NCBI GenBank assembly: GCA_963726795.1 | Contig: CAVSDD010000008.1 | Coordinates: 28,668-92,667, forward strand | Direction: 5' to 3' | Length of the DNA: 64,000 bases | Origin: an uncultured Alphaproteobacteria bacterium | Lineage (GTDB): Bacteria; Pseudomonadota; Alphaproteobacteria; Rhizobiales; Hyphomicrobiaceae | Shown: piece after piece, positions 1,198 through 17,412 of the stretch | Layout: every line of letters begins with the position of its first letter | Position numbering within the stretch: position 1 is the stretch's first letter | Made by a program: the position numbers and the translations under genes | The notes under the pieces: generated by a model | Databases searched by the model: none | The model's input: only the letters and a program-made list of their open reading frames with translations | What the model was told of the DNA's origin: nothing

Positions 1198-1296
1198 GAC
1201 GGTACGCTCGAGCTGAACATGTACGGGCGGCTGCGGACGCGCGCCAAGGTCCGGCGGCGTCCGAGCGATACAAAAATGGCCGCCGCTCGCGGCCGA

Positions 1297-1662
1297 TCAG
1301 CTCAAGGATGGTGGTCCGCGCGCGGAGGTGCCGCCCCCGCGCATAAAGGCGCGCACGAGATCGTGCGTGGGCGCGAACGCGAGCTTGGCAAACGTGAGAC
1401 TGAGCGCTGACGGGGCCGAAACGGGCTCGCTCAGCGCGACGCCTCCGGTCGATGCGTAGGCGCAAAGGCCCCGGTCGGCGGCCTTCGGCTTGGCGGGAGC
1501 GAGCTTGCCGTCGGACGTGAGCGTGGCGGTCGCGGGGCCGTGACCGGTGCAGATGACAACCGTCAGCTCGCCGCTGGCAGCCGGCGCAAGCATGAAGCCC
1601 ACGGGGACCACGCTGCGCAGCGCGAACGCCAGAACGATGATCACTGAAAGGAGGCGACGCAC
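1297..1662 (-). CDS. small secreted DUF2946-like protein (typical partner of TonB-dependent copper receptors)
   Basis: ORF 1297..1662. Signal peptide MRRLLSVIIVLAFALRS, then VPVGFMLAP...VVICTGHG...GLCAYAS. The family assignment is from memory of the DUF2946 pattern plus its position directly upstream of the receptor. Confidence 0.5.
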   Translation of the reverse strand: MRRLLSVIIVLAFALRSVVPVGFMLAPAASGELTVVICTGHGPATATLTSDGKLAPAKPKAADRGLCAYASTGGVALSEPVSAPSALSLTFAKLAFAPTHDLVRAFMRGGGTSARGPPSLS

Positions 1663-1857
1663 GACAACTGCTCCCCGGAACGGCGAGGTCGACCCTACGG
1701 ATTGAGACTTCTTAAATCAACGCAACTGGCGTCCAGTCTCCCAGGTCCAAAAACATCTGTAGCCGCAGGGACACAAACCACGAGTGACAGCAAGTCGCGG
1801 CATTGCCCACCTTTGGGGCGCGGCGGATATTCCGTGCGGCGAGCGCCGGTTCACGAG

Positions 1858-2310
1858 CTAGGCCGATTTGCTGCTAGCTGCCGATCGCCACAGACGCGGA
1901 CCGGCCTCGTCGACCGACAGCGCGCCCGCCCCGTACTTCATGAGAAAGAGCAGCGACACGGCCCACACGCCGTGCGTGTCGAACGCGTTGGGATAGACGA
2001 AGATCTCGATGACGAGCGTCATCATCAGCAAGCCCGCCGCGGCGAAGCGCGTGAGCAGGCCGGCAAAGATCAGGATTGGAAGCGTCAGCTCGGCCGCGGT
2101 CGCCATGTAGGCTGCGATCTCCGGCGGTATGAGCGGAAGACGGTACTCCTCGCGGAACAGCGTGAGCGTGTTGCCGTCCGCCCAGCCCTCAAGCTTCAGC
2201 ATGCCGGAACGGAAGAATGTCGTGCCGATGCCAATGCGGGCAACGTAGGAGATCAGGTCTTCGGGGATCGCCTTGAACCGGTCGACGGTGCTCTCGATCA
2301 GATCGCGCAT
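1858..2310 (-). CDS. DoxX-family membrane protein, fourth gene of the bufferin-type operon
   Basis: ORF 1858..2310. Multi-TM sequence FFRSGMLKLEGW...AAELTLPILIFAGLLTRFAAAGLLMMTLVIEIFVYP is typical of DoxX. The start overlaps the stop of the upstream DUF2063 gene. Confidence 0.8.
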   Translation of the reverse strand: MRDLIESTVDRFKAIPEDLISYVARIGIGTTFFRSGMLKLEGWADGNTLTLFREEYRLPLIPPEIAAYMATAAELTLPILIFAGLLTRFAAAGLLMMTLVIEIFVYPNAFDTHGVWAVSLLFLMKYGAGALSVDEAGPRLWRSAASSKSA

Positions 2311-3137
2311 TGGTTCATCCTCATGGCTGGAGACTGGGTTCGATCGAATTGGCGCTCTTGCGGGCGCACGTCGATGACGGCGCCGGCGCGGAACAGCGTC
2401 GCCAGCGCGGCGGCGAACTCGAACTCGCTGTCGAGCGCGGCAGCAGCCTCGGCTGAAAGCTCCAGCGAGTGCCCGGCGGCGAGGGCACGGATGAAGGCGA
2501 AGGTCGGCGTGTCGATACCGATCAGCGCAACGTCGAACTTTGGCCGGACGACGAGGGCGGCTTCTCCTCCAGCCGAAACATCAATCGGCCGCACGATCTC
2601 GTCGTGCGTGTTGGTGTGCCAGAGGCTGAGCACGGGATAGTCGGAGATCAGGATGGCGCACGAGGGGTGCAGCATCAGGCTGGAATCGAGCGCATCATCG
2701 CCGAACCGGCCAAGCTTTGTTGCGGCGATCGGCTGAGCGTCGGCTGCATGGTAGGCGGCGGCCAACATCCATTCGAGCCGCGCCACATCGGACAAATACG
2801 GTAGTGCCCGGGCTGGCTCAAAGGTGCTCAGAAAATGCGGGAACTCCTCGCCATATTCGAAGAGCGCCGGCGAAAGCGGCGGGTGGTCGGCAATGAACAC
2901 TTTTGCCATCGCCGCGAAGAAATCTTCGCCGACCAGCCTCGCGACGACCGGGAAGCGCGCTGCAAGGCAGCCCGTGAGGCTCGCAAAGACGTTGTTGCGG
3001 TAGATGGTGAAGCGCTTGGCCCGAGCGGCAACGCGCGGTCCCAGCACGTCCGCCGGCAGTTCGTCGCTCTGCCACAGCAGGGCGCGCGCGAAGGCGCCCT
3101 GGTGGTCCTCGATCGAAGCGTTTGTTTCACGCCACAC
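2298..3137 (-). CDS. bufC: DUF2063-domain protein (BufC-like partner of the MNIO enzyme)
   Basis: ORF 2298..3137. FTIYRNNVFASLTGCLAARFPVVARLVGEDFFAAMAKVFIADHPPLSPALFEYGEEFPHFL matches the DUF2063 signature. It overlaps the DUF692 stop by 11 nt. Confidence 0.8.
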   Translation of the reverse strand: MWRETNASIEDHQGAFARALLWQSDELPADVLGPRVAARAKRFTIYRNNVFASLTGCLAARFPVVARLVGEDFFAAMAKVFIADHPPLSPALFEYGEEFPHFLSTFEPARALPYLSDVARLEWMLAAAYHAADAQPIAATKLGRFGDDALDSSLMLHPSCAILISDYPVLSLWHTNTHDEIVRPIDVSAGGEAALVVRPKFDVALIGIDTPTFAFIRALAAGHSLELSAEAAAALDSEFEFAAALATLFRAGAVIDVRPQERQFDRTQSPAMRMNQCAI

Positions 3138-4014
3138 GCGAATATCCCTCCTTCCGGGAACTCATGAGCAAATCGGCCTTCATTGCCTCGGCATAGAGAT
3201 CGCTCCACGCGGGCACGTCGTTGTCCCATTCGATCAGCGTCGCCGTCGGGCCGCCGCGCGCGATGACGCGCTCGTAGAGGCCCCACACCGCGTTGCGCAC
3301 CACGCCATCGTGGGAATCGATGAGGAGCGGCGTTCCGTCCTCATCATCCAGCTGCGCGTAGCCGGCGAGATGGATCTCGCCCGCGTGCTCCAGTGGAAAT
3401 TCGTCGATGTAGCTCACAGGATCGAAGCGGTGGTTGGTGGCGCAGACGAAGACATTGTTGCAGTCGAGCAGCAGCCCGCAGCCGCTGCGCTCGACGAGCG
3501 CGCGCAGGAATTCGATCTCGGACATTTCGCTGTTGGCGAAGGTGACGTAGGTCGACGGATTTTCGATGAGCACGCGGCGCTTCAGGGCCGTTTGCATCTG
3601 ATCGACGTGACGGGCCACGTGAGCGAGTGTTGTCTCGTTGTAGGGCAGCGGAAACAGATCGTTGAGAAACGCGCCTTCGTGCGTCGACCAGGCGAGGTGC
3701 TCGGACACGAGCCCCGGCTCGTAGCGCTTGACCAGCGCCGCCAATCGATTGAGGTGCTCGCGGTTGAGCGGCTCTGCGCCACCGATCGACAGCCCGACGC
3801 CGTGCAGCGAGAGCGGATACCTCGCGCGCACGCGCTCCAGCACGTGGTGCGGCCAGCCACCGGCACCCATGAAGTTTTCCGGGTGCACCTCGAACCAGCC
3901 GATATCGGGCCAGACGTCGAGGATGTCGCGATAGTGCTCGGGCTTCAGTCCGACCCCGGCTCGCGCCGGGATCGGAGCAGGCGCTTTCTGTCCGAGCTTG
4001 ATTGCTGCAGACAT
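3127..4014 (-). CDS. bufB: DUF692 multinuclear non-heme iron oxidase (MNIO, BufB-like)
   Basis: C-terminal 295 codons of ORF 3127..4281. The start is set at the internal ATG (4014) giving MSAAIKLG..., because the upstream 89 codons are Arg/Pro junk overlapping the precursor gene. Motifs seen: GVGLKPEHY, WFEVHPENFMGAGG, LSLHGVGLSIGG, SEHLAWS, LPLPYNE, LIENPSTY, LLLDCNNVFV, IHLAGY. Confidence 0.9.
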   Translation of the reverse strand: MSAAIKLGQKAPAPIPARAGVGLKPEHYRDILDVWPDIGWFEVHPENFMGAGGWPHHVLERVRARYPLSLHGVGLSIGGAEPLNREHLNRLAALVKRYEPGLVSEHLAWSTHEGAFLNDLFPLPYNETTLAHVARHVDQMQTALKRRVLIENPSTYVTFANSEMSEIEFLRALVERSGCGLLLDCNNVFVCATNHRFDPVSYIDEFPLEHAGEIHLAGYAQLDDEDGTPLLIDSHDGVVRNAVWGLYERVIARGGPTATLIEWDNDVPAWSDLYAEAMKADLLMSSRKEGYSRVA

Positions 4015-4021
4015 CGCCGCC

Positions 4022-4315
4022 TCAGGACTTGACGGGTTGCAGCGAGCCGTCGCGCTTGGTGCCGTCGGGCAGGGTGACCGACGTGGTGGTGCACGTGCCG
4101 GCCGGCACGTACTTCCAGGCGCCCTTGTCGTATTGGACTTTAGACGTACCCGCGCACGAGTTATTGCCGGCGGAGGCGCAGTCGTTCTTGCCGGCGGGGC
4201 TGATGCCGTAGCATTTCTCTTTGCTGGCATCGTCCGCCAGTGTTGCCTGCGACAAGGCGGCGACGCCGGCGACCGCTGCAACGGCGGACAAAAGAAGGGT
4301 CCGGGACTGAGTCAT
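4022..4315 (-). CDS. bufA: DUF2282 bufferin-type RiPP precursor with Sec signal peptide (BufA1-like)
   Basis: ORF 4022..4315. Signal peptide MTQSRTLLLSAVAAVAGVAALSQATLA, then a four-Cys core EKCYGISPAGKNDCASAGNNSCAGTSKVQYDKGAWKYVPAGTC. It ends 8 nt upstream of the MNIO gene. Confidence 0.85.
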   Translation of the reverse strand: MTQSRTLLLSAVAAVAGVAALSQATLADDASKEKCYGISPAGKNDCASAGNNSCAGTSKVQYDKGAWKYVPAGTCTTTSVTLPDGTKRDGSLQPVKS

Positions 4316-4401
4316 TGGGATTTGTCTCCGTATTTGGCGAACTGTTCAATGCCGGCCAGGCTCGGCCGACAGGTCCAAATTGCCGTCACAGAGGAAGGGA
4401 G

Positions 4402-4442
4402 TGAAATGCCCGCTGGCTATGGATTTGATAAAGGCGCGCCAA
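4402..4442 (-). promoter_or_regulatory. 41-bp LTTR/OxyR-type operator module, copy oriented toward bufA
   Basis: The reverse strand reads TTGGCGCGCCTTTATCAAATCCATAGCCAGCGGGCATTTCA. It has the same column spacing as the six forward copies and ends 86 nt upstream of the bufA ATG. The first dyad is degenerate; the second ATAG is perfect. Confidence 0.55.
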
Positions 4443-4447
4443 CGCCG

Positions 4448-4488
4448 ATAGCGCGGGGCTATCAATTTCGGAGGAAGCCACTATTTCC
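4448..4488 (+). promoter_or_regulatory. 41-bp LTTR/OxyR-type operator module, copy oriented toward the peroxiredoxin-like genes
   Basis: ATAGCGCGGGGCTATCAATTTCGGAGGAAGCCACTATTTCC. ATAG-N7-CTAT dyad plus a distal CTAT. It lies back to back with the 4402..4442 copy. Confidence 0.65.
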
Positions 4489-4656
4489 ACTGTCGCGCCG
4501 GCTCTCGCATGGTGCCTGCATGGAGAAGACTAGCCCCACTTGCGAGATCAATTGGAAACCTGGAGGTCTTCGGGCGTTCTCGGTGCAGCCAATCGACAAG
4601 GTGCACGGCAGCATCGGCGCGCGGACCAGGTTCGCCAAAACAGGAATTGGATCAGG

Positions 4657-5352
4657 GTGACGCGGCCAAATACACTGGAGCAAGCCTTCGCCGACATCTG
4701 CACGATGGACGGACCCCTGAGCGGCAAGCTCGCCGCCTATTCCGCAAAGCTGCAGGAGCTGAACTTCCCGTTCGCCGAAGCCTACGACACGCTGGTCGCC
4801 CGCCTCATCGATGGGCAAATCGGATCCGCGGCGCCCAAGGTCGGCGAGCCGATGCCGACGTTCGTTCTGCCAAACCAGGCCGGGCATCTCATCGCTCTTG
4901 AGGATCTGCTCACGAGCGGCGCCGTGGTGATCAGCTTCAACCGGGGACACTGGTGCCCGTTCTGCAAGATCGAGTTGCGGACGCTCGCGAGCTATCACGA
5001 GGAGATCGCCGCTCACGGCGCACAGGTTGTTTCCATCCTCCCCGACCGGCAGAAATTCGTCGAAAAGCTTAACGAGCACACGCACGGCAAGCTCCCGATC
5101 CTCACCGATATCGACAATGGCTACGCGCTGTCGCTGGGTCTCGTCTTGTGGCTGGGCGATCGCCTCAAGGAGCTGATGAGCGGCCGCGGGCTGCATTTGG
5201 AGGAGATCCACGGCAACGACGGCTGGTTCGTGCCGCTACCTGCGACATTCGTGGTAGCGCGCGACGGGACCGTCATCTCGCGCCACGTGGACCCGGAATT
5301 CCGGTCGCGAATGGAGGTCGATGAGATCCTTCGCGCGTTGCGCGGCGCCTGA
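4657..5352 (+). CDS. peroxiredoxin-like / AhpC-TSA family protein with CxxC motif, paralog 1
   Basis: In frame with ORF 4540..5352. The start is moved to GTG 4657 (VTRPNTLEQAFADIC) by alignment with the N-termini of the two downstream paralogs. Motifs seen: FNRGHWCPFC, DIDNGYALSLGLV, PATFVV..DG.V....VDPEFR.RME. Confidence 0.8.
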   Translation: MTRPNTLEQAFADICTMDGPLSGKLAAYSAKLQELNFPFAEAYDTLVARLIDGQIGSAAPKVGEPMPTFVLPNQAGHLIALEDLLTSGAVVISFNRGHWCPFCKIELRTLASYHEEIAAHGAQVVSILPDRQKFVEKLNEHTHGKLPILTDIDNGYALSLGLVLWLGDRLKELMSGRGLHLEEIHGNDGWFVPLPATFVVARDGTVISRHVDPEFRSRMEVDEILRALRGA

Positions 5353-5436
5353 AGCCATAGTAGCCAGGAGCAGGGATTTCTGGCCGGTTTGAACCGGTTA
5401 CCCGCTTGTCCGCTTTAGGCCGCGAGCGCCGCCACG

Positions 5437-6150
5437 ATGACTGAGACGAGCCCGCTCGACGCGGCTTTCCAAAAGATCTGCGCCACCGAGGCGCCGTTGA
5501 ACGAGCGGCTGGCTCTCTTCACCGCGGCAGTCGAGGCGCACGGACAGCCCTTCGCCGTCGCATACCATAACCTCGTAACCCAGCTGGATGCCGCCGCTGC
5601 TGGCACGACCGCACCGGGACCCGGCGATACGCTGCCGGATTTCCTGTTGCCCGACTACACAGGCAAGCTCGTTCAACTGGAGGAGCTGCTCGAGGTCGGC
5701 CCCGTCGTCGTCAGCTTCAACCGCGGCCACTGGTGCGAGTATTGCGAGCTTGAGCTGATCGCCTTCGCAGAAGCGCAGGCGGAGCTCGCGCGGCATGGCG
5801 CTCAGGTTATTTCCATCATGCCTGAGCGCAGCGAATATACGCGCAGCGTGCGCGCGCTCACCGGCGATACCGTGACTGTGGTCTCCGATATCGACAACGG
5901 CTACGCGCTTTCGCTCGGCCTCGTCATTTGGCTCGGCGAAACGGTGCGCGGGCTGTATCAGCAGTTCGGATTGGACATCGAACGCTACCAGGGAAACGGC
6001 ATGTGGTTTGTGCCGATCCCGGCAACGTTCGTGCTCGACCGGCAGGGCAAGATCGTCGCGCGCAAGGTCGATCCGGACTTTCGCACCCGAATGGACCTGG
6101 ATGAAATACTAGCCGCCCTGCTAACGACCCAGACTGCCCATAATGGCTAG
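5437..6150 (+). CDS. peroxiredoxin-like / AhpC-TSA family protein with CxxC motif, paralog 2
   Basis: ORF 5437..6150. FNRGHWCEYC, DIDNGYALSLGLVIWLG, PATFVLDRQGKIVARKVDPDFRTRMD. Collinear with paralogs 1 and 3. Confidence 0.85.
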   Translation: MTETSPLDAAFQKICATEAPLNERLALFTAAVEAHGQPFAVAYHNLVTQLDAAAAGTTAPGPGDTLPDFLLPDYTGKLVQLEELLEVGPVVVSFNRGHWCEYCELELIAFAEAQAELARHGAQVISIMPERSEYTRSVRALTGDTVTVVSDIDNGYALSLGLVIWLGETVRGLYQQFGLDIERYQGNGMWFVPIPATFVLDRQGKIVARKVDPDFRTRMDLDEILAALLTTQTAHNG

Positions 6151-6236
6151 CGGCAATTCTGGAGAGAGACAGTCATTTTTCTGGCCATTCGGGCCGGTTC
6201 GGACCAGAATTGCATTTTACGAATTCGGAGCCGGCG

Positions 6237-6947
6237 ATGGCTGAACCATCGATTGCCGAAATCCTGGAAGAGACAACCGAGCGCTGCCGCAATCTCGATG
6301 CGCCGCTCGCCGGGCGGCTGCAGGCCTTCGCCGATGAAGTGCGCGCGCTCAACTCCGAATTTGCCGACACGGTTGAGCGCATGGTCGCGCGGCTTCGGGC
6401 TTCGGGCGCGGGCGAAAGAGCTCCGGGCCCGGGCGAGCCGATGCCGGAGTTCATGCTGCCCGATCAGCAGGGCCGTCTCGTCAGTCTTTCGGATCTCATC
6501 ACGGCCGGCCCGGTCGTCGTTGCTTTCCACAGAGGTCACTGGTGTCCGTACTGTCGCATCACCGCCGACGCGCTCACGCGTATCCACACGTCGGTGCGAG
6601 ATCTAGGTGCGCAACTTGTCGTCATCACGCCGGAGATCGAGCGGTTCAACGAGGAGCTGCGCGCGGCTGTGAGTGCGCCTTTTTCGGTTCTGTCCGACAT
6701 GGACAACGGCTACGCGCTGATGCTGAACCTCGCCTTCTACGTGGGCGATGAGAAAAAGAAGCTGATGAAGTTCGCGGGCTGGAACATCCCGCCTTACAAC
6801 GCGAACGACAACTGGACGCTGCCGATCCCGGCGACCTTCGTCGTCGGCCAGGACGGGCTGGTGAAGGCCCGCCACATCGATCCCGACTACCGCAAGCGCA
6901 TGGACGCGGAAGCGATCCTCACCGCGATCAAAGCGTCGCGGAGCTAA
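6237..6947 (+). CDS. peroxiredoxin-like / AhpC-TSA family protein with CxxC motif, paralog 3
   Basis: ORF 6210..6947. ATG 6237 is preferred (GGAG about 9 nt upstream; MAEPSIAEIL). Motifs seen: FHRGHWCPYC, DMDNGYALMLNL, PATFVVGQDGLVKARHIDPDYRKRMD. Confidence 0.8.
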   Translation: MAEPSIAEILEETTERCRNLDAPLAGRLQAFADEVRALNSEFADTVERMVARLRASGAGERAPGPGEPMPEFMLPDQQGRLVSLSDLITAGPVVVAFHRGHWCPYCRITADALTRIHTSVRDLGAQLVVITPEIERFNEELRAAVSAPFSVLSDMDNGYALMLNLAFYVGDEKKKLMKFAGWNIPPYNANDNWTLPIPATFVVGQDGLVKARHIDPDYRKRMDAEAILTAIKASRS

Positions 6948-6960
6948 GCGGGGTCGGAGT

Positions 6961-7863
6961 TCACGCGGCCTTGGAGGCAGCTTCGCGGCGCGACCAGTCC
7001 GACGCCCGCATCATCTTAATCAGGGTGCTCGCGGCCATCGATCGCTGCCGCCCGGCGACGGCGTAGACATAGACCGTTCGCTGCATGTCGAATCCATCGA
7101 CTTCGATCAGCTTGATCTGCGGCGACATCGACGTGCTTTCCGGCGCCATTCCGACACCCAGGCCCGCCGCCAGAATCGCCACAAAATCGGCGTCCGAGCC
7201 GGCGTGGTGCGAGGCGTCAAATTCGACACCCACTGCGTTCAGAATGGCGCGCCCGCGCTCGAAGTCCTCGCAGTAGGGACGGCAGACGATGCGCTCGCTC
7301 TTGAGGTCGGCAGCGCCGATTCTGCTCTTGGCAGCGAACGAATGACCGATGCCGACGACGAGCCGATAGGACTCCGTGAACAGCTGCCAGCCTTCCAGCC
7401 GGTCCCAGCTCTCGGCCAGTTTCGGCGCCACGGCGACCTCTGCGTCGCCCTTCTTGAGATGCTCGGCGATCTCCGCGCTCGTACCGCGCAGGAATTTCAG
7501 GTTGAGCCCCGGCATCGCGCGCACGAGCTCTTTCAGGAACGGAAGCACGATCTCGATATTCACGGTGAGCGGCAGCGCAATCGAGAGCGGCGCAATCGCT
7601 CCCTTCTTGATTGACGTCGCAACCTGCTTTGCGGCCTGAGCGCTGTCGAAGCACTGCTGCATCAGCGGCAGCATGCGGTGGCCGAGCTCGGAGAGGTGCG
7701 TGAGATTGCGCTCGCGGCGGAAGAGCTCGCCGCCGAGCTCCTCTTCCAGCTGCTTGATGGCGCGGGTCAGCGACGGTTGTGCAACGTGGCATTCCTCGGC
7801 GGCGCGGGTGAAATTCAATAGTCGCGCCACGGCAAGGAAGTACCGAACCTGGTGCATCTCCAT
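6961..7863 (-). CDS. LysR-family transcriptional regulator (LTTR 1)
   Basis: C-terminal 300 codons of ORF 6961..8130, with the start at ATG 7863 giving MEMHQVRYFLAVARLLNFTRAAEECHVAQPSLTRAIKQLEEELGGELF (LTTR helix-turn-helix). CRPYC lies at residues 194-198. It is divergent from bdhA with an operator copy in between. Confidence 0.85.
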   Translation of the reverse strand: MEMHQVRYFLAVARLLNFTRAAEECHVAQPSLTRAIKQLEEELGGELFRRERNLTHLSELGHRMLPLMQQCFDSAQAAKQVATSIKKGAIAPLSIALPLTVNIEIVLPFLKELVRAMPGLNLKFLRGTSAEIAEHLKKGDAEVAVAPKLAESWDRLEGWQLFTESYRLVVGIGHSFAAKSRIGAADLKSERIVCRPYCEDFERGRAILNAVGVEFDASHHAGSDADFVAILAAGLGVGMAPESTSMSPQIKLIEVDGFDMQRTVYVYAVAGRQRSMAASTLIKMMRASDWSRREAASKAA

Positions 7864-7929
7864 GCGGGTACCGAAGCTTATCCCAAACGCGGCGGCAAAA
7901 TTCGCTCGATTAGAAAATAGCGCCAAGCC

Positions 7930-7970
7930 ATAGCCGCCCGCTATCAATTCCGGACCCATACGGCATTTCA
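7930..7970 (+). promoter_or_regulatory. 41-bp LTTR/OxyR-type operator module in the lysR-bdhA divergent region
   Basis: ATAGCCGCCCGCTATCAATTCCGGACCCATACGGCATTTCA. It lies 66 nt from the LTTR start and 140 nt from the bdhA start, which is the classic divergent LTTR arrangement. Confidence 0.7.
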
Positions 7971-8110
7971 GCTTACAACTTCTTACACGTACCGTCGCTG
8001 GCGAAACTGGTTCCCCGCTGACGGTCTCCCCCGCCGTCAGTTCCCTGGACCCGGGGCCTTGTGCCCCTCGCGAGTGCCCCGGGTCGATTTTCTGCTGACA
8101 GCGACCGGAG

Positions 8111-8956
8111 ATGACCAAAATGCTGGACAAACCTTTGAAAACGGCAGGCGATGCAGCCCCGTTCGGCTATGGCGAATTATCGGGCAAATCGACCATCGTG
8201 ACCGGCTCGACCAGCGGCATCGGCCTGGGTGTAGCGCGTGCATTCGCGGCCTGCGGCATGAACGTCATGCTGAACGGTTTCGGCGACCGGGCCGAGATCG
8301 ACCGCACGGCGGCCGAGCTTGCCGATACCTATGGCATCAAGACCGCCTATTCGGCTGCCGACATGTCGAGGCCCGACGATATCGCCCGCATGGTCGATTG
8401 GACCACCGAGACATTCGGTGCCGTCGATGTGCTGGTCAACAACGCGGGCATCCAGCACGTGGAGGCGATCGAGACGTTTCCCCTCGAGAAGTGGAACGCC
8501 ATTCTCGCGATCAACTTGTCGGCGGCCTTCCACGCGATCCGCGCGGTTGTCGCCGGCATGAAGACGCGCCGCTTCGGCCGCATCATCAATGTCGCCTCGG
8601 CGCACGCGCTCGTGGCTTCGCCGTTCAAATCAGCCTACGTCGCCGCCAAGCACGGCATCGTCGGTTTGACCAAGACGGTGGCGCTCGAGACCGCCGAGTT
8701 CGGCATCACCGCCAACGCCATTTGCCCGGGGTACGTGCTCACCCCTTTGGTGCAAAAGCAGATCCCGGAGACCGCCAAGGCGCGCGGGCTCACCGAGGAG
8801 CAGGTCGTTCGTGACGTGCTGCTGCATGCCCAGCCGACGCGGCAGTTCGTGACCACCGAGGAGATCGGCGCGCTCGCGGTGTTTCTCTGCTCGCAGTCGG
8901 CGCGCTCGATCACCGGCGCGGCGATCCCGGTCGAAGGCGGCTGGACCGCCCAGTAA
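8111..8956 (+). CDS. bdhA: 3-hydroxybutyrate dehydrogenase (SDR family)
   Basis: ORF 8111..8956. TGSTSGIGLG, NNAGIQHV, SAHALVASPFKSAYVAAKHGIVGLTK, ICPGYVLTPLV, GGWTAQ C-terminus. An alternative ATG at 8120 has better GGAG spacing. Confidence 0.9.
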   Translation: MTKMLDKPLKTAGDAAPFGYGELSGKSTIVTGSTSGIGLGVARAFAACGMNVMLNGFGDRAEIDRTAAELADTYGIKTAYSAADMSRPDDIARMVDWTTETFGAVDVLVNNAGIQHVEAIETFPLEKWNAILAINLSAAFHAIRAVVAGMKTRRFGRIINVASAHALVASPFKSAYVAAKHGIVGLTKTVALETAEFGITANAICPGYVLTPLVQKQIPETAKARGLTEEQVVRDVLLHAQPTRQFVTTEEIGALAVFLCSQSARSITGAAIPVEGGWTAQ

Positions 8957-9039
8957 TTCGTCAAAGCAGGATTTGAATCGAGGCGTCGGCGCTGCCGGCG
9001 CCTCGTTGCGTGTGCGCGAGGTCACCTGGATCGCCGGTG

Positions 9040-9080
9040 ATAGCCCAGGGCTATCGATACGGTTGCCAAACGGCATTTCA
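9040..9080 (+). promoter_or_regulatory. 41-bp LTTR/OxyR-type operator module upstream of the cupin-MFS pair
   Basis: ATAGCCCAGGGCTATCGATACGGTTGCCAAACGGCATTTCA. It ends 89 nt upstream of ATG 9170. Confidence 0.7.
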
Positions 9081-9169
9081 AATCAGGGGCTTCAGAAGGG
9101 CATCTTGCTGGTCATGGGCGCGGGCCTTCCTCGCCCACAGCCAACCCCCTTTCTGCAAAGGATGCTCTC

Positions 9170-9649
9170 ATGACCCAGACCATCAAGCTCAGCTCGGTCC
9201 TTGCGGCCCTCATCGCCGTCGGAGCCGTCGCCGTTTCTGCGCCAGCGTTTGCGGGCAGCTGCCCGGCCGGCAAGGAAACCACCACCAATGGCCAGAAGGC
9301 CGGCGCCACCGCGCACAAGGACGTCAAGGAAGAGCTGCTCGGCCAGATCGATCTCTCCAAGGAAAAGATCGCAGTCGCCGATCATCACCTTCGCATGCGC
9401 CGGCTCGAGATCCAACCCGGCGGCGAGGTTGCCTGGCACAGCCACGGCGAGCGGCCGGCGTTGATCTACGTCGTTGCCGGCTCGATCACCGAATACTCGA
9501 GCCATTGCGAAGTGCCCATCGAGCACACGACCGGCGAGCTATCCGTCGAGCAGGGTGGCCTGTCGCACTGGTGGAAGAACAACACCAAGAAGCCGGTGAC
9601 GTTGATCTCTGCCGACATCGCGCAGGACTCCGACCAGCACGGCATGTGA
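9170..9649 (+). CDS. secreted cupin-domain protein
   Basis: ORF 9170..9649. Signal peptide ...AVSAPAFAGSC, then a cupin core LEIQPGGEVAWHSHGERPALIYVVAGSITEY...HWWKN. Confidence 0.7.
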   Translation: MTQTIKLSSVLAALIAVGAVAVSAPAFAGSCPAGKETTTNGQKAGATAHKDVKEELLGQIDLSKEKIAVADHHLRMRRLEIQPGGEVAWHSHGERPALIYVVAGSITEYSSHCEVPIEHTTGELSVEQGGLSHWWKNNTKKPVTLISADIAQDSDQHGM

Positions 9650-9746
9650 GCGGCTCAACTCGGAGCCGGGCCAATCTCGTTGCTGCTCCTCCCAGTAACG
9701 AGACGACGTCCGGCTCCGAACTCCATTGGCAACAGGGAAGCCTGAA

Positions 9747-10967
9747 ATGGCCGGAATTCTCAGCACCGCCGCGCTACCGCGCGATCCGCCGCAGCACCGC
9801 GCGCTCGACGGCACGGTGCGCTTCGTCGTCATCGCCACCATGGCCTTCCTGACGGTCGTCGACCTTTTCGCGGCTCAGGCCCTTCTCCCAACCCTCGTCA
9901 AACGCTATGGCGTATCTCCGGCCGCGATGGGGCTGGCGGTGAACGCGTGCACCTTCGGCATGGCGGCGGCGGGTCTCGCGGTCGCTCTCTTCAGCCGGCA
10001 CATCGACCGGCGGTCGGGGATCCTGGTCAGCCTCACCCTTCTCGCCATCCCGACAGCGCTGCTGGCGCACGCACCCAACTTGGCCGTGTTCGCCACCTTG
10101 CGCGTCGTGCAGGGCGTGCTCATGGCCTCGGCATTCACGCTGACGCTCGCCTACCTCGGCGAGCGCTACAGCGCGGAAGATTCCGCCGGCGCCTTCGCCG
10201 CCTACATCACCGGCAATGTGGCAAGCAATCTGCTGGGGCGCCTGATCGCTGCCGGTGTCACCGAGCACGCGGGCCTCAACGGCGCATTCTATACCTTTGC
10301 CGCGCTCAATCTGCTCGGCGCGGCGCTCGCCTACTTTCGCATACCGCGCGTAAGCCCGGCTGGCGGCGCGGGTGCCAGCGCCGACGACATGATGTCGAGC
10401 TGGCTGACTCACCTGAAGCACCCGGGGCTGCGCGCCGGCTTCGGCGTCGGCTTCTGTATTCTATTCGCCTTCATCGGCACATTCACCTTCGTCAACTTCG
10501 TGCTCGTGGCAGCGCCGCTGTCGGTCGGCATGATGGAGCTCGGCCTCATCTATCTCGTCTTCTTGCCGTCGATCTTCACGACACCATTTGCAGGGGCGGC
10601 GGCGAAAAAGTACGGAACGCGGCGCGCGCTATTGGCGGCGCTGGCGACGGCCGCTGCAGGATTACCGCTCCTCCTTTCCTCGCGCCTGAGCCTGGTCCTT
10701 GTCGGCATGGTGCTGGTGGCGGTGGGGACCTTCTTCGCGCAAGCCTTGGCGACCGGCTTCGTCAGTCATACGGCAAAGCGCGATCGCAGCGCGGCGAGCG
10801 GCATGTACCTCGCCAGCTATTTCATCGGCGGATTGATCGGCACAGCCGTGCTCGGCCAGGTCTTCGACCGGTTTGGCTGGCCGGCGGCGGTCATCGGCAT
10901 CGCCATCGCGCTCGGCTCAGGCGCATTCCTGAGCGTCTACCTGCGATCTGAGGAAGCAGCGGCGTGA
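9747..10967 (+). CDS. MFS transporter
   Basis: In frame with ORF 9726..10967. ATG 9747 has AGGGAAG 8 nt upstream. About 12 hydrophobic segments and an MFS-like loop SRHIDRRSGIL. Confidence 0.8.
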   Translation: MAGILSTAALPRDPPQHRALDGTVRFVVIATMAFLTVVDLFAAQALLPTLVKRYGVSPAAMGLAVNACTFGMAAAGLAVALFSRHIDRRSGILVSLTLLAIPTALLAHAPNLAVFATLRVVQGVLMASAFTLTLAYLGERYSAEDSAGAFAAYITGNVASNLLGRLIAAGVTEHAGLNGAFYTFAALNLLGAALAYFRIPRVSPAGGAGASADDMMSSWLTHLKHPGLRAGFGVGFCILFAFIGTFTFVNFVLVAAPLSVGMMELGLIYLVFLPSIFTTPFAGAAAKKYGTRRALLAALATAAAGLPLLLSSRLSLVLVGMVLVAVGTFFAQALATGFVSHTAKRDRSAASGMYLASYFIGGLIGTAVLGQVFDRFGWPAAVIGIAIALGSGAFLSVYLRSEEAAA

Positions 10968-10979
10968 TCGCAGTGCGCG

Positions 10980-11020
10980 ATAGGCCAGGACTATGGAGTT
11001 CGGAGCCAATCGCTATTTCA
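10980..11020 (+). promoter_or_regulatory. 41-bp LTTR/OxyR-type operator module upstream of DUF302-patatin
   Basis: ATAGGCCAGGACTATGGAGTTCGGAGCCAATCGCTATTTCA. This is the most degenerate forward copy. It ends 77 nt upstream of ATG 11098. Confidence 0.55.
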
Positions 11021-11097
11021 AGGTTGGGCCGCGCTTGCGCAAGGTGAGTTGGGAACATCGACCGGGGCCGCGTGCCCGAAAACGACGGAGAGCTCTT

Positions 11098-11592
11098 ATG
11101 ACCATTCGCAATTCAACTCTCGCACTTACTGCAACGCTCATCGCCGCCGGTGCGCTTGCCATCGCGGCACTGTCCCCGGCTCGTCTCCAGGCAGCCGTCA
11201 ACGCTGACGGCATCGTCAAGGTCAAAAGCGCCTACGGAGTCGACGAGACGGTCGATCGCCTCAAGGCTGACATCGAGAAAAAAGGCATCAAATTCTTCAT
11301 GACGGTCGATCAGTCGAAGCTCGGCGGCGACGCGGGCATCGCATTACGCCCGTCAAAACTTTTGATCTTCGGCAATCCCCCGCTCGGCATCCAGTTCCTC
11401 ACCGCCAACCCAAATGCGGGTCTAGACTGGCCGGTGCGCCTGCTCGTCAACCAGGACGCGAACGGACAGGTGTGGGCCGTCTATACGGATTTCGGCTGGA
11501 TCGCCAGCCGCCACCACATCACCAACCGCGACGCGCAATTCAAGATGGCGTCGGAGGTGATCTCCTCGATTACGTCGAGCGTGACGAAGTAA
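11098..11592 (+). CDS. secreted DUF302-domain protein
   Basis: In frame with ORF 10993..11592, starting at ATG 11098 (MTIRNSTLALTATLIAAGALAIAAL signal). Motifs seen: VDETVDRLKADIEKKGIKFFMTVDQ, LLIFGNPPLG, LDWPVRLLV. Confidence 0.75.
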   Translation: MTIRNSTLALTATLIAAGALAIAALSPARLQAAVNADGIVKVKSAYGVDETVDRLKADIEKKGIKFFMTVDQSKLGGDAGIALRPSKLLIFGNPPLGIQFLTANPNAGLDWPVRLLVNQDANGQVWAVYTDFGWIASRHHITNRDAQFKMASEVISSITSSVTK

Positions 11593-11625
11593 CTGCCAAT
11601 CCGGCGCCAGCGAGTGGAGACCCAG

Positions 11626-12900
11626 ATGGGTGAGAAATCGAAGCTCAACGGAGCCAAGGCCAGCGCAAGCGTCAAGGCGCCGCTGGCGACGGACGGGCAC
11701 GGGCGTATCGTGCTGGTGTTGCAGGGAGGCGGAGCGCTCGGCGCCTACCAGGCCGGTGTCTACCAGGCCCTGCACGAAGCCGACATCGAGCCCGACTGGG
11801 TCATCGGCACGTCGATCGGGGCCATCAATGCGGCGCTGATCGCCGGCAACGAACGGGAAAATCGCGTGCCGGCGTTGCGTGCGTTCTGGGATCGCATGGC
11901 GCACAAGTCGGTGTGGCACGAGTGGGCGCTGTGGCCGCGTTTCATGCAGTCGGCGTCCTACCTCAACACACTGACGTCCGGCCTGCCGGGGTTCTTCGTT
12001 CCCAATCCGCTGGCCTTCCTCGGACCGCACGTGGATCTGGGCGCGGATAACGCCGGCTTCTATTCCACCGAGCCTTTGAAAAAGACGCTCACCGAGCTCG
12101 TCGACTTTTCGATCTTGCCCGCCAACAAGCCGCGCCTCACGGTCGGCGCTGCGCACGTTCGCACGAGCCGCATGCGCTATTTCGACAGCAAGACGACCGA
12201 GATCGGCGTTGAGCACATCATGGCGTCGGGCGCGCTGCCCCCTGCGTTCCCGGCGGTACGCATCGATGGCGAGCTGTATTGGGACGGCGGTATCCTTTCC
12301 AACACTCCGACCGAAGCGATCTTCGACGAGAACCCGCGCGTCAACTCGCTCGTCTTTGCCGTGCACATGTGGAACCCCGAGGGATCCGAGCCCCAATCCA
12401 TCTGGGAGGTTCTGCACCGCCAGAAGGACATTCAATATTCGAGCCGCGTCGCATCTCACATCGCGCGCCAGGCGCAGATCCACCGGCTGCGCCACATCAT
12501 CCGCGAGCTGGCGATGATGCTGCCTGAAGAGGTGCGCGCCAGCCCAGCCGTGCGCGAGCTTGCCGGCTACGGCTGCCTCACGCGCATGCACGTCGTGCGC
12601 CTGCTATGGCCAGGACACGACAATGAGGACCACACCAAGGACGTAGACTTCAGTCCATCCGGCATCCGCAAGCGGTGGGGGGCCGGCTACGAGAAGACAA
12701 TGCGCGCGATCGAAGGCGCGCCGTGGAAGGGCGAGTTCGATCCGATCGAGGGCATCTTCCTGCACGAGCTGATCGAAGAGGCACGGATGGATCCGATGGC
12801 AGGCCCGCTGATGGTCGAAGCGCAGACGTCGCTCGACCTCAGTCGCGCAGCCGCTCGGCTTCAGGGAGAGAGCACGCTGCCCGCGTCGGACTTGAAGTAG
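11626..12900 (+). CDS. patatin-like phospholipase family protein
   Basis: In frame with ORF 11614..12900. ATG 11626 has GGAGA 5 nt upstream. Motifs seen: LVLQGGGALGAYQAGV (oxyanion G-rich motif), GTSIGAINAA (GxSxG), WDGGILSNTP (DG dyad). Confidence 0.85.
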   Translation: MGEKSKLNGAKASASVKAPLATDGHGRIVLVLQGGGALGAYQAGVYQALHEADIEPDWVIGTSIGAINAALIAGNERENRVPALRAFWDRMAHKSVWHEWALWPRFMQSASYLNTLTSGLPGFFVPNPLAFLGPHVDLGADNAGFYSTEPLKKTLTELVDFSILPANKPRLTVGAAHVRTSRMRYFDSKTTEIGVEHIMASGALPPAFPAVRIDGELYWDGGILSNTPTEAIFDENPRVNSLVFAVHMWNPEGSEPQSIWEVLHRQKDIQYSSRVASHIARQAQIHRLRHIIRELAMMLPEEVRASPAVRELAGYGCLTRMHVVRLLWPGHDNEDHTKDVDFSPSGIRKRWGAGYEKTMRAIEGAPWKGEFDPIEGIFLHELIEEARMDPMAGPLMVEAQTSLDLSRAAARLQGESTLPASDLK

Positions 12901-12932
12901 TCACACACCGCGAGTCGCTCGCTCGAGCTGTC

Positions 12933-12954
12933 GCCGGCATGTTGACGTGCCGGC
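12933..12954 (+). terminator. hairpin downstream of the patatin gene
   Basis: GCCGGCA-tgttgacg-TGCCGGC. A 7-bp stem with no clear U-run. Confidence 0.3.
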
Positions 12955-13071
12955 GCAGTCGTTTCGAGCCGCAGCTGCATTTGCATCTCCCTAAAATTCG
13001 ACCAGAAATCCCCGCGATGCCGACGGCGCTGGAACGTTACCGCTGGCGCGTTGCGACCGAACAGCTCACCG

Positions 13072-13112
13072 ATAGCGCACGAGCATCAATTCAAAAGGAA
13101 CTCGGCATTTCA
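13072..13112 (+). promoter_or_regulatory. 41-bp LTTR/OxyR-type operator module upstream of the 41-codon peptide gene
   Basis: ATAGCGCACGAGCATCAATTCAAAAGGAACTCGGCATTTCA. It ends 113 nt upstream of ATG 13226. Confidence 0.65.
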
Positions 13113-13225
13113 GTTCGGCACCTGGGAACGGCATAACGGCTTCACGGAAGTGCTGACGAGTTCGCATTCAGCCAATCCGAAGACCGAGAGTTTCAAACGC
13201 AATGCCAACCCCCAGGAGACCTACA

Positions 13226-13351
13226 ATGAAAGCCTTCATCATCGCCGCTCTCTTCACGATCGCTTCCGTCGCCACGCTCGGCGCGCCGGCCCAGGCCGAC
13301 AGCTTCACCGTGCACGGCTTCAACGGCGGCAACTCGTACGGCGGCCGCTAA
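13226..13351 (+). CDS. 41-aa secreted peptide (predicted 17-aa mature part), absent from the ORF track
   Basis: Manual translation gives MKAFIIAALFTIASVATLGAPAQA/DSFTVHGFNGGNSYGGR*. AGGAGA lies 8 nt upstream of the ATG. A strong intrinsic terminator follows 27 nt after the stop, and the gene has its own operator copy upstream. Confidence 0.6.
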   Translation: MKAFIIAALFTIASVATLGAPAQADSFTVHGFNGGNSYGGR

Positions 13352-13378
13352 AATCACGACCACGAACTTGTCACGAAC

Positions 13379-13408
13379 GGCCGCAGGCTCCTCCCCTGCG
13401 GCCTTTTT
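13379..13408 (+). terminator. rho-independent terminator of the small peptide gene
   Basis: GGCCGCAGG-ctcctcc-CCTGCGGCC followed by TTTTT. Confidence 0.8.
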
Positions 13409-13642
13409 CGTTGGGGCGAGCCGCGCTCGTGAGCAGCGCGAAACCCATGCGACCTCGCTCGGAGTTGGAGCCGCACGAGTCTCGCCCGCAGACCAACGGC
13501 GAGCTCAAGGCCGCGCTCGTGTCCTGCGCTTGAGTGCCGACCGCCGATGCTCCGTTCAGCCGGAACTAGTGCCATCTACTCAGATTAGACTTCGATTTGA
13601 GGGTCATCCGTCCCGCGTTCGCTTGGAACTCAAAATCGCATC

Positions 13643-13683
13643 ATAGCTTGCGGCTATCGAATCCCGATCCAATCGATATTTCA
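13643..13683 (+). promoter_or_regulatory. 41-bp LTTR/OxyR-type operator module upstream of the 88-aa secreted protein gene
   Basis: ATAGCTTGCGGCTATCGAATCCCGATCCAATCGATATTTCA. It ends 103 nt upstream of ATG 13787. Confidence 0.65.
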
Positions 13684-13786
13684 GCCGGCACCGCCGCGTC
13701 GGTAGTTTGCCCTTGCACGCAGACAGCGTCGCACCCCCGCGACGAGGATGCGCAAAGTGATTGTTTCAAACCCAAGGGAGACCACC

Positions 13787-14053
13787 ATGAAGAGAATCGC
13801 AATTGCAGCGGTTGCCGCCGCCCTGCTCGCAGGCGTCACCCCCGCCCTCGCCAAGGAAGATTGCAATGCCGGTTACAAGGATTTCCTCGGCAAGATGTCG
13901 ATCTACGTCAACAAGATGAGCGGCTATGAGCTGGCTGACGCCGTGCGCAAGTCGCTCGACGCCTACAACTCCTGCTCCTCGGGCGACAACTTCTCGCCCC
14001 ATGGCGTCTGGGACGGCATCCTGGCCGACATGAAGTCCAAGGCCGGCAACTAA
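13787..14053 (+). CDS. 88-aa secreted hypothetical protein (two Cys)
   Basis: In frame with ORF 13748..14053. ATG 13787 has GGGAGA upstream. Signal peptide MKRIAIAAVAAALLAGVTPALA, and a mature part KEDCNAGYKDFL...AYNSCSSGDNFSPHG. Confidence 0.65.
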   Translation: MKRIAIAAVAAALLAGVTPALAKEDCNAGYKDFLGKMSIYVNKMSGYELADAVRKSLDAYNSCSSGDNFSPHGVWDGILADMKSKAGN

Positions 14054-14070
14054 GGTTCTGCCATTAAGTG

Positions 14071-14096
14071 GCCCCTCGAGCGAAAGCTCGGGGGGC
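14071..14096 (+). terminator. hairpin after the 88-aa protein gene
   Basis: GCCCCTCGAGC-gaaa-GCTCGGGGGGC (one G-T wobble). The downstream tail CTCTTCGC is weak. Confidence 0.45.
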
Positions 14097-14137
14097 CTCT
14101 TCGCATCCGGCTAACCTTTTAGGCGCTCATAATCGTC

Positions 14138-15706: not shown

Positions 15707-15793
15707 GCTCGCCGGGCGGGGAACAAGCCAGCCGCGCAGCGTGCTACATAAAACTCTTGATCGAACGATCCGCGCCCAGAAGGTCTCGCCTGC

Positions 15794-16735
15794 ATGGAGA
15801 TGCATCAGGTCCGCTATTTCCTGGCATCCGCCCGGCATCTCAATTTCACCAAGGCCGCCGAGGAGTGCAACGTCGCCGGCCCCTCGCTGATCAAGGCGAT
15901 CAAGCTGCTCGAGATGGAATTCGGCGGCCCGCTGTTCAACCGCGAGCGCTCCCATACGCACCTGACCGAGCTCGGACGCATCGCGCTGCCGCACCTGGAG
16001 CAGGTGTTGCAGGAATCGCTCGACGCCAAACGCAAGGCGCACGATTTCCTCCACCTGAAGGAGGCGACGCTCAAGATCGGTATCATGTGCACGATTGCGC
16101 CGAGCCAGTTTGTCGAGCTGATCGCCAGCTTCCGTTCCCGCTATCCCAACGTCGTGCTGCAGATCATCGACGCCAATGCGCGCCAGCTGCAACTGGCGCT
16201 GCTGGCGGGCGACCTCGAGGCGGCGATCTACTGCCTCCCGGGCGAGCCCGAGCATGAGCGCACCCACGTGATGCCGCTGTTCAAGGAGCAGATGGTCATC
16301 GCGGTGTGCCGCAGCCACGTGCTCTCGCGCAAGAAGGTGGTCAAGGGATCGGACCTGAGCGGGGAAGCCTACCTGGACCGGATCAACTGCGAGTTCACCG
16401 GCTACGCCGACCGCCTGTTCTCGGAGCGCTCGATTGACGGGCCGACCGTCTACCAGAGCGAGCGCGACGACTGGATCCTCGCCATGATCGCTGCCGGCAT
16501 GGGCTACGGATTCATACCTCGATCCTCGGCGCTTTACCCCGGCGTCATCTATCGGCCGCTGACCGAGCCCGAGTTCTGGCGCACGGTCAATCTCGTCACG
16601 GTGCGCGGCCGGCGGCACTCGCCCGCGATGGGTGCGCTCGTGCGCGAGGTTGTGCGCACCAAGTGGCAGGGACGCGAAGCGCTCGCCGCAGAGGTCGCAC
16701 GAGCCGGGCTGGACGACGCGCCTAATGACCCTTAG
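15794..16735 (+). CDS. LysR-family transcriptional regulator (LTTR 2, paralog of 6961..7863)
   Basis: ORF 15794..16735. MEMHQVRYFLASARHLNFTKAAEECNVAGPSLIKAIKLLEMEFGGPLF. It shares its first ten residues and the HTH with LTTR 1. Cys is at residue 199 by my count. Confidence 0.85.
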   Translation: MEMHQVRYFLASARHLNFTKAAEECNVAGPSLIKAIKLLEMEFGGPLFNRERSHTHLTELGRIALPHLEQVLQESLDAKRKAHDFLHLKEATLKIGIMCTIAPSQFVELIASFRSRYPNVVLQIIDANARQLQLALLAGDLEAAIYCLPGEPEHERTHVMPLFKEQMVIAVCRSHVLSRKKVVKGSDLSGEAYLDRINCEFTGYADRLFSERSIDGPTVYQSERDDWILAMIAAGMGYGFIPRSSALYPGVIYRPLTEPEFWRTVNLVTVRGRRHSPAMGALVREVVRTKWQGREALAAEVARAGLDDAPNDP

Positions 16736-17015
16736 TGGCTTCCCGTTGCAGGACTTCCAAATATCCGCTCTTCAGAACTTCCAGTTGAAGCGTCCGCGCA
16801 CGCCGTTGTCCTGCACGGAGTTCGCAAGCTGGCCCGCGAACAGGTCAATCAGCTAGAGGCGCTGCCGGACCGCGGCGGGCTCGTCCAGCGACGCCACAGT
16901 CAGGTCTCTAGATCTCGGGGGAGACCTTGGTTTCTAAAACCTTTAACAGTATCGATCGTATGAACTTTTCGACGCCGCCAGCGTTGGGGGCTCAGAGCAG
17001 GGGGACGAGGGGCGC

Positions 17016-17396: not shown

Positions 17397-17412
17397 CCAA
17401 CTAGCGCCTGCC

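Follow-up and report, generated by a model that had tools for sequence, protein, structure and literature searches.

Does a short sequence that recurs upstream of seven neighbouring transcription units combine them into one regulon, and which protein would bind it? This question is raised by a stretch of 64,000 nucleotides from an uncultured alphaproteobacterium of the Hyphomicrobiaceae (contig CAVSDD010000008.1, positions 28,668 to 92,667), which in the following is called the window. Between positions 4402 and 13683 it carries seven copies of a 41-nt module, and among them lies the gene of a LysR-type transcriptional regulator (LTTR) at 6961-7863. In our reading, to which we assign a probability of roughly 0.8, the module is that half of an activator-dependent sigma-70 promoter to which the regulator binds, and this LTTR would activate all seven units together.

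Module copies and promoter geometry

The seven copies had been located in an initial annotation, and all of them are exact at their coordinates (Table 1): six are on the plus strand and one is on the minus strand (4442->4402). With refined start codons it also holds that every copy is intergenic, is directed at the next gene and ends 77-168 nt upstream of its start codon; the individual distances are 86, 168, 140, 89, 77, 114 and 104 nt for copies 1 to 7. The columns that had been listed as conserved were used as a search pattern with at most two mismatches and gave exactly seven matches, all of them the known sites. In 100 dinucleotide shuffles the expectation for this pattern was 0.71 matches and the maximum was 3. 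As the pattern originates from the sites themselves, a leave-one-out analysis is the fairer test. Here, a weight matrix made from six sites was used to score the seventh on both strands, i.e. at about 128,000 positions of the window. The held-out copies scored between 28.8 and 39.1 bits, and the seven sites were the top seven positions in every run; the best non-site, at position 17295, reached 9.8 bits. That the window holds no further copy, previously judged by eye, agrees with the weight-matrix scan, which found none in the remaining 50 kb or so outside 4402-13683.

The anatomy of the module was deduced from a logo of 196 non-redundant sites found in 80 related loci. These loci represent one genome per species, contain orthologues of the regulator that are 48-78% identical, and comprise approximately 20 kb each (±10 kb). 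They stem from Hyphomicrobium, Methyloceanibacter, Methylocella/Methylocapsa, Pseudolabrys, Bradyrhizobium and uncultured Alphaproteobacteria. Columns 1-15 of the logo form a strong dyad, ATAGC-N5-GCTAT, which holds the generic T-N11-A motif of LTTRs (T2...A14), as had been proposed. A weaker dyad, aaAGC-N5-GGyAT, occupies columns 23-37 and is located exactly 22 bp downstream of the first. The sequence ATTTC in columns 36-40 is conserved to about 99% and is invariant in the copies of the window. Further conserved columns are CGA (16-18), CCAA (27-30) and CGG (32-34). The flanking columns are essentially devoid of information, and directly upstream of column 1 the conservation falls to zero.

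Downstream of the module, column 62 is an A in 78% and column 66 a T in 80% of the sites, compared to a background of 18% and 17%, respectively. Both columns lie outside the scoring matrix and were not used for site finding. In a second, metagenomic set of sites (see below), the corresponding values are 93% and 92% among the matches listed. The signal is present in the promoter classes of the cupin, dehydrogenase, DUF302 and 88-amino-acid (aa) proteins; exceptions are the seven peroxiredoxin-like sites, where T66 is weaker, and the five sites of Met-rich proteins, where A62 is absent. Among the copies of the window, six of seven contain A62 and five of seven T66. An A at position 2 and a T at position 6 are the best-conserved positions of the sigma-70 -10 hexamer. 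Columns 61-66 are accordingly read as a predicted -10 hexamer (nAtnnT) at a fixed distance of 20 nt from the module. Transcription would then start about 7 nt later, near column 73, which places the centres of the two dyads at approximately -65 and -43. The ATTTC sequence overlies a poor -35 element, TTCAgn, and the spacer is 17 bp long. A scan of positions 1-17000 for consensus sigma-70 promoters found none, compared to 2.7 expected, which is the expected outcome if the promoters need an activator. The elements of an LTTR promoter are thus found together: a T-N11-A dyad at about -65, a weaker site at about -43 that runs into ATTTC and the -35 element, and a predicted start.

This geometry suggests the following mechanism. 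A tetramer of the LTTR would occupy the -65 dyad with high affinity and the -43 dyad more weakly. The -43 site runs into the ATTTC sequence that overlaps the poor -35 element, and the -10 hexamer would follow at its fixed distance of 20 nt. In its active form the regulator would recruit RNA polymerase to otherwise weak promoters; activation, and not repression, is what we infer. In this way the bufferin operon, the three CxxC peroxiredoxin-like genes, the bdhA-like dehydrogenase gene, the cupin and MFS genes, the DUF302 and patatin genes, the gene of a 41-aa peptide and the gene of an 88-aa protein would be co-activated. The copy at 7930 would additionally autoregulate the divergent regulator gene.

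Two other kinds of element were considered and rejected. A promoter for an extracytoplasmic function (ECF) sigma factor was taken into account in view of the SigF dependence of bufferin operons in Caulobacter; the symmetry of the dyads and a -10 hexamer of the sigma-70 type fit an activator site and not an ECF promoter of the AAC/CGT type. An RNA element lacks any Rfam match in positions 1-20000 at E values up to 0.1. A search of the sequence for tRNA genes found none.

Conservation of the module and identity of its probable regulator

In the related loci, the matrix of the seven sites found between two and seven strong matches per 20 kb. In 68 of 79 loci, the 400 nt upstream of the LysR orthologue contain a module of at least 20 bits that points away from this gene. 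Its distance to the start of the LysR gene is most often 63-71 nt, and it is 67 nt in the window. These data support the proposal that the copy at 7930 is the divergent operator of the LysR gene itself. In L013 and L016, where the divergent gene codes for a disulfide reductase and a DedA-like membrane protein, respectively, in place of the dehydrogenase, the module is still found beside the LysR gene; what it accompanies is thus the regulator and not the target.

The genes downstream of the sites were called with a filter for codon-position G+C content, and site-gene families were compiled from sites of at least 28 bits. The most frequent families are the secreted cupin (51 sites), the dehydrogenase (48 sites) and the secreted DUF302 protein (22 sites), followed by the 88-aa protein (14 sites, 13 of them in other loci), the CxxC peroxiredoxin-like proteins (7 sites, 6 in other loci), a Met-rich secreted protein of 95 aa (5 sites), bufA (2 sites) and the 41-aa peptide (2 sites). 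Module-like sites of 21-31 bits precede bufA in L001, L002 and L079, and in L073 they are found upstream of the MNIO gene and before DoxX; the bufferin-linked sites thus span two kinds of gene arrangement. In L005, L006, L009, L012 and L022, a module is followed by a homologue of the 41-aa peptide. By a crude mask, 57% of the DNA in the loci is coding-like, and 159 of the 196 sites lie outside of it.

Metagenome contigs were scanned by the motif alone, by means of 20 specified bases and no protein, which yielded at least 120 stretches. Among the matches listed, 117 sites had sufficient sequence downstream, and at 105 of these the next gene belongs to the same cluster families, namely cupin (57), DUF302 (38) and, for the remainder, five other cluster families. 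Conserved site-gene pairs, the mainly non-coding location of the sites in related loci and the agreement of the metagenomic families all argue for the earlier view that the seven units constitute one putative regulon.

The same data bear on the simplest objection, namely that the copies are a dispersed repeat, miniature mobile or repetitive extragenic palindrome-like, or stretches of AT-rich intergenic DNA that resemble each other by chance, and play no part in regulation. Seven similar short sequences inside 9.3 kb, all of them intergenic, might suggest this. However, flanking repeats are absent and the conservation ends exactly at the edges of the module; it keeps a fixed orientation and fixed distances to the -10 hexamer and the gene; the same sites precede orthologous genes even at a regulator identity of only about 50%; Rfam gave no hit, and the matches are far above chance expectation. 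A mobile repeat or a chance similarity is effectively refuted by the comparative data and is hardly credible.

The regulator encoded at 6961-7863 has hundreds of close relatives, mostly in Hyphomicrobium-like metagenome bins. Its recognition helix, CHVAQPSLT, resembles the one with which OxyR reads ATAG; the corresponding sequence of P. aeruginosa OxyR is CHVSQPTLS. P. aeruginosa OxyR is also its best relative of solved structure, with 76 bits, but CbbR and an unnamed LysR-family regulator score equally well. The best NCBIfam matches are GltC, CynR and CidR, all below cut-off, and the protein does not score as NodD-like. In an alignment of the regulator family, Cys25 and Cys198 are invariant.

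The initial annotation had recognised in the module the four-half-site architecture of OxyR operators. For the DNA this is confirmed, as the layout ATAG-N7-CTAT-N7-ATAG-N7-CTAT is present in the logo of 196 sites, with a degenerate second dyad (aaAG...GyAT). It does not extend to the proteins: neither LTTR of the window reaches the cut-off of the OxyR family NF008361 (69.4 bits for 6961-7863 and 91.7 bits for 15794-16735, compared to 329). The identity of the window regulators to a genuine OxyR, that of L154, is 22-28%, and about 22-24% for the regulator at 6961-7863. The column of Cys208 holds I/L/F or V; the redox pair Cys199/Cys208 is hence incomplete, and at most one cysteine is kept. Judged by its sequence, the regulator encoded at 6961-7863 is not an OxyR orthologue.

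The locus just mentioned contains, at L154:3744-5361, a canonical divergent oxyR-ahpC pair of an organism with 70% G+C, the OxyR of which displays GHCLRDQ...DVCRL. The 20-base pattern that was used for the metagenome scan, ATTTC included, also fits the operator of this pair (ATAGCTTTCAGCTATCGACATCATAGGAACAATTCATTTCC). True OxyR sites and the module are therefore close in sequence space.

This match, together with the OxyR layout of four half-sites at about -65 and -43, could mean that the modules are the operators of a genuine OxyR encoded elsewhere, and that the neighbouring LysR gene is just one target of a classical peroxide regulon. Such an assignment is unlikely, because the module follows a non-OxyR LysR gene at a fixed distance in 68 of 79 genomes. 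Moreover, an ahpC/OxyR-like site was found in just one of the 12 unassigned metagenome sites, compared to 105 sites of the cluster families among the matches listed. The CGA (16-18), CCAA (27-30) and CGG (32-34) columns do not belong to the OxyR consensus, and the targets, tested for the content of an OxyR regulon, comprise no catalase or ahpCF genes.

Two LTTRs had been named as binder candidates, the second being encoded at 15794-16735, and only the first is conserved together with the module. The second is a paralogue encoded at the cluster edge. Over the 60 N-terminal residues, which include the DNA-binding helix, the two proteins are almost identical, and both have the invariant Cys column. 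It is thus conceivable that the paralogue is the main binder, or that the sites are used by both proteins, which might, for instance, act in opposite ways. This is still less probable than control by a genuine OxyR: orthologues of the paralogue with at least 47% identity occur in only three of 80 loci (L030, L063 and L074), whereas modules are present in nearly all of them, and the weight-matrix scan found no module upstream of the paralogue in the window. Thus it is not the paralogue that has been conserved together with the module. Directly upstream of its orthologues in L063 (~6595-6635) and L074 (~5676-5716) lies a variant box (ATAC-N7-CTATCGA...TAGCC.AACGGTATTGGA), which scores 15-23 bits and ends with TATTGGA; weaker matches with this ending occur in L032, L047, L051 and L070. 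The variant box, which also speaks against binding of the paralogue to the module itself, suggests a related but distinct operator of the sister regulator.

The LysR gene at 6961-7863 is thus most likely that of the cognate regulator. Several points weigh against this assignment or are not accommodated by it. In 11 of the 79 loci, no divergent module reaches 20 bits. The cell's true OxyR could bind the modules, also or instead, given the match in L154, and the paralogue with its nearly identical DNA-binding N-terminus is a possible secondary binder. Cys198 aligns with the Cys199 column of OxyR by MAFFT but is offset by two residues by HMMER. Finally, the ATTTC sequence is conserved beyond the needs of a second half-site or of a -35 element and is not fully explained.

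The gene cluster

The gene units were assigned with Pfam and NCBIfam, and start codons were refined. The coordinates of all features are compiled in Table 1.

Table 1. Module copies, regulator genes and cluster genes in the window, with positions counted from its first nucleotide
Feature	Position	Strand	Remarks
Module copy 1	4402..4442	-	bufferin operon promoter; exact match; leave-one-out 28.8 bits; predicted -10 CAATTT 4377-4382
Module copy 2	4448..4488	+	promoter of the three tandem CxxC peroxiredoxin-like genes; leave-one-out 37.3 bits; predicted -10 CATGGT 4508-4513
Module copy 3	7930..7970	+	between LysR gene (start 7863, -) and bdhA-like dehydrogenase gene; predicted -10 TACCGT 7990-7995
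Module copy 4	9040..9080	+	promoter of secreted cupin and MFS transporter; exact match, leave-one-out
Module copy 5	10980..11020	+	promoter of secreted DUF302 protein and patatin-like phospholipase; predicted -10 CAAGGT 11040-11045
Module copy 6	13072..13112	+	promoter of the 41-aa secreted-peptide gene; predicted -10 CATAAC 13132-13137
Module copy 7	13643..13683	+	promoter of the 88-aa secreted protein; predicted -10 TAGTTT 13703-13708
LysR-type regulator, 300 aa	6961..7863	-	Pfam HTH_1 and LysR_substrate; below every NCBIfam cut-off
Second LysR-type regulator	15794..16735	+	paralogue, 33% identical to the first
Bufferin operon	1297..4315	-	bufA-MNIO-DUF2063-DoxX-DUF2946; terminator 1278-1294
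bufA (DUF2282, PF10048)	4022-4315	-	Pfam; ATG 4315
MNIO enzyme (PF05114)	3127-4014	-	Pfam; ATG 4014
DUF2063 partner (PF09836)	2298-3137	-	Pfam
DoxX (PF07681)	1858-2310	-	Pfam
DUF2946 gene	1297-1662	-	Pfam; last in bufferin operon, after DoxX
Three tandem AhpC/TSA-fold CxxC genes	4657-5352, 5437-6150, 6210-6947	+	Pfam AhpC-TSA and Redoxin; first start GTG 4657
3-Hydroxybutyrate-dehydrogenase-type short-chain dehydrogenase	8111..8956	+	TIGR01963 365.6 bits (cut-off 307); divergent from regulator gene
Secreted cupin	9170-9649	+	Pfam
MFS transporter	9726-10967	+	Pfam
Secreted DUF302 protein	11098-11592	+	Pfam; ATG 11098
Patatin-like phospholipase	11614-12900	+	Pfam
41-aa secreted-peptide gene (MKAFIIAALFTIASVATLGAPAQADSFTVHGFNGGNSYGGR)	13227..13352	+	unannotated; strong intrinsic terminator 13379-13412
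88-aa secreted protein	13788..14054	+	two Cys in mature part; G+C-rich hairpin at ~14060-14095 downstream
Metzincin	14138-15706	+	no module of its own

The gene order DUF2282-MNIO-DUF2063-DoxX (4315->1858) corresponds to the composition of the bufferin biosynthetic operon as described in PMC11626156. For the DUF2946 gene that ends the operon, tblastn against the 80 related loci gave no match. The products of the three AhpC/TSA-fold genes yielded weak NCBIfam matches only, none of which reached a peroxiredoxin cut-off; a relative of these genes in L013 contains the motif WCPFC. The 41-aa product consists of a signal peptide and a mature peptide of 17 residues (DSFTVHGFNGGNSYGGR), and its homologues share an ADSF(S/T)VHG core. 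The 88-aa protein has no match in Pfam or NCBIfam. The hairpin downstream of its gene was spotted by eye and was not reported by the terminator scan.

The metzincin gene, for which membership in the regulon had been considered, probably does not belong to it; since it lacks a module and is preceded by the G+C-rich hairpin, its membership is doubtful. The cluster had also been regarded as accessory. This view cannot be maintained, as the cluster is conserved across many Hyphomicrobiales: in the 80 loci the dehydrogenase is present 64 times, the cupin 59 times, the MFS transporter 56 times, the patatin-like protein 54 times and the DUF302 protein 32 times. The family of the 88-aa protein is found in 19 loci, and in 76 of 80 loci the LysR orthologue has a homologue with the AhpC/TSA fold as its tail-to-tail neighbour. 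A search of PLSDB gave only three short matches of 74-76% identity and no known plasmid island.

Some details of the arrangement deserve mention. Copies 1 and 2 stand back-to-back, 5 bp apart, and their first dyads are separated by 20 bp from centre to centre; copy 1 possesses the weakest first dyad of the seven (TTGGC...TTTAT). Back-to-back pairs of divergent modules are frequent in related loci (e.g. L001:13642-13735, L005:4721-4820 and L007:13329-13463); their first dyads lie 5-60 bp apart, and the two units are driven in opposite directions. In the intergenic region between the LysR and dehydrogenase genes, an extra ATAGC half-site is located at 7918-7922, 12 bp upstream of copy 3 (aaaATAGCgccaagccATAGC...), which may serve as an additional autoregulatory contact. 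Just past the cluster, at 17413-18654, lies the gene of a GAF-domain histidine kinase (HWE/HisKA_2), with no module nearby.

In Bradyrhizobium-type loci, modules precede genes of small secreted proteins rich in Met or in Met and His, located at L065:~13750-14067 (minus strand; ...GMAYMYAGPGKMSAMAMAA...) and L171:~290-590 (...KMVKMMHHMGHAMGKG...). Their composition is that typically found in periplasmic proteins that bind Cu(I) or act as oxidant sinks.

Inducing signal, significance and comparison with known systems

With respect to the inducing signal, an oxidant or a copper-type envelope stress, perhaps sensed via the invariant Cys198, is our leading guess, though with the odds against it. 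It is prompted by the fact that several targets are secreted or thiol-active, that bufferins chelate copper, that Met-rich secreted proteins are under the module in relatives, and by those parts of a study on Azospira (PMC4436054) that deal with a Met-rich hypochlorite scavenger. An alternative signal would be a metabolite akin to 3-hydroxybutyrate or acetoacetate that acts as effector, because a dehydrogenase gene is divergent from the regulator gene.

A more far-reaching interpretation is that the regulator founds a family of OxyR-related one-cysteine LysR-type sensors in soil Hyphomicrobiales including Bradyrhizobium, in which Cys198 senses oxidant, hypochlorite-type or copper stress and which drive a dedicated, largely periplasmic defence set. 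We regard this as tentative and rather doubtful. If it were true, the defence set would consist of the copper-chelating bufferin peptide, the secreted cupin, the DUF302 protein, small secreted proteins that are Met-rich or contain Cys, and CxxC thiol proteins. Such a system would parallel the SigF/NrsF envelope-stress regulon on the basis of a LysR protein, and it would add a new route of control over a metallophore that is a ribosomally synthesized and post-translationally modified peptide (RiPP).

The regulon is real, and its proposed mechanism is that of a textbook LysR/OxyR-type activator site; its conceptual novelty is therefore modest. In the literature searched on LysR in combination with these target families, the host genera, copper or the motif, no published account of the regulator, the module or the regulon was found, and the mentions of DUF302 that were found are unrelated. 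What has been gained, for a LysR regulator of abundant soil and root bacteria, is its probable identity, its operator with the promoter geometry, and roughly a dozen families of targets; Bradyrhizobium, Hyphomicrobium, Methylocella and Methyloceanibacter are carriers of the conserved regulator. Several proteins of no known function and a RiPP metallophore become tied to one putative sensor. The targets, mostly without assigned function (secreted cupin, DUF302 protein, 88-aa protein, 41-aa peptide), would gain a physiological context from their predicted co-regulation with bufferin and thiol-redox genes. For bufferins this would be a new control route, as the regulators in the bufferin papers examined are ECF sigma factors or BvgAS; the term LysR does not occur in the bufferin articles that were text-searched. 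Furthermore, the 41-nt module is rich enough in information to find members of the regulon in metagenomes from sequence alone.

Among known systems, the nod boxes of NodD and the nod-box-like sites of MexT are LysR-type promoter modules of approximately 40-47 bp that are repeated upstream of several operons in a fixed promoter register. Like nod boxes, the module described here is conserved far beyond T-N11-A and is repeated before each unit of the regulon. Unlike the nod box with its ATC-N9-GAT motif, it contains ATAGC-N5-GCTAT; the regulator does not score as NodD-like, and the biology is unrelated.

The similarity to the operators of E. coli and P. aeruginosa OxyR is closer. In the oxyR-oxyS region of E. 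coli, phylogenetic footprinting identified ATAG-N7-CTAT sites at -66, -44 and -35 (PMC5002191). The module likewise consists of four ATAG-type half-sites in two dyads 22 bp apart near -65 and -43, and the half-sites fall in adjacent major grooves as in OxyR operators. Common features are also the divergent regulator gene, the CHV(S/A)QP(T/S)L recognition helix and a Cys that MAFFT places in the Cys199 column. In contrast to OxyR operators, the module has a degenerate second dyad and conserved CGA, CCAA, CGG and TTTC columns, and its targets are periplasmic proteins or proteins of unknown function and the bufferin operon. For Deinococcus radiodurans, a one-cysteine OxyR is reported in which the sensing cysteine alone is retained (PMC2225504). 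To this extent it resembles the window regulator, which by MAFFT has a Cys in that column and lacks the Cys208 partner, and thiol sensing by the regulator is possible on this precedent, if unproven. The two proteins differ in that their sequences are only distantly related and that the alignment of Cys198 is uncertain by two residues.

With regard to the targets, the closest parallel is found in SigF/NrsF regulons. Bufferins chelate copper and are elsewhere under the control of SigF/NrsF or BvgAS, and the buf operons of Caulobacter are copper-induced (PMC11626156). In Azospira, a periplasmic Met-rich peptide is reported to scavenge hypochlorite, and SigF and NrsF are discussed in the part of that report considered here (PMC4436054). 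Like these regulons of Caulobacter and, as far as that part goes, Azospira, the module would control a bufferin operon and, in relatives, small secreted proteins that are Met-rich or Met-His-rich. The difference lies in the control device: in place of an ECF sigma factor and its anti-sigma factor, it is here a LysR-type activator site on a sigma-70 promoter.

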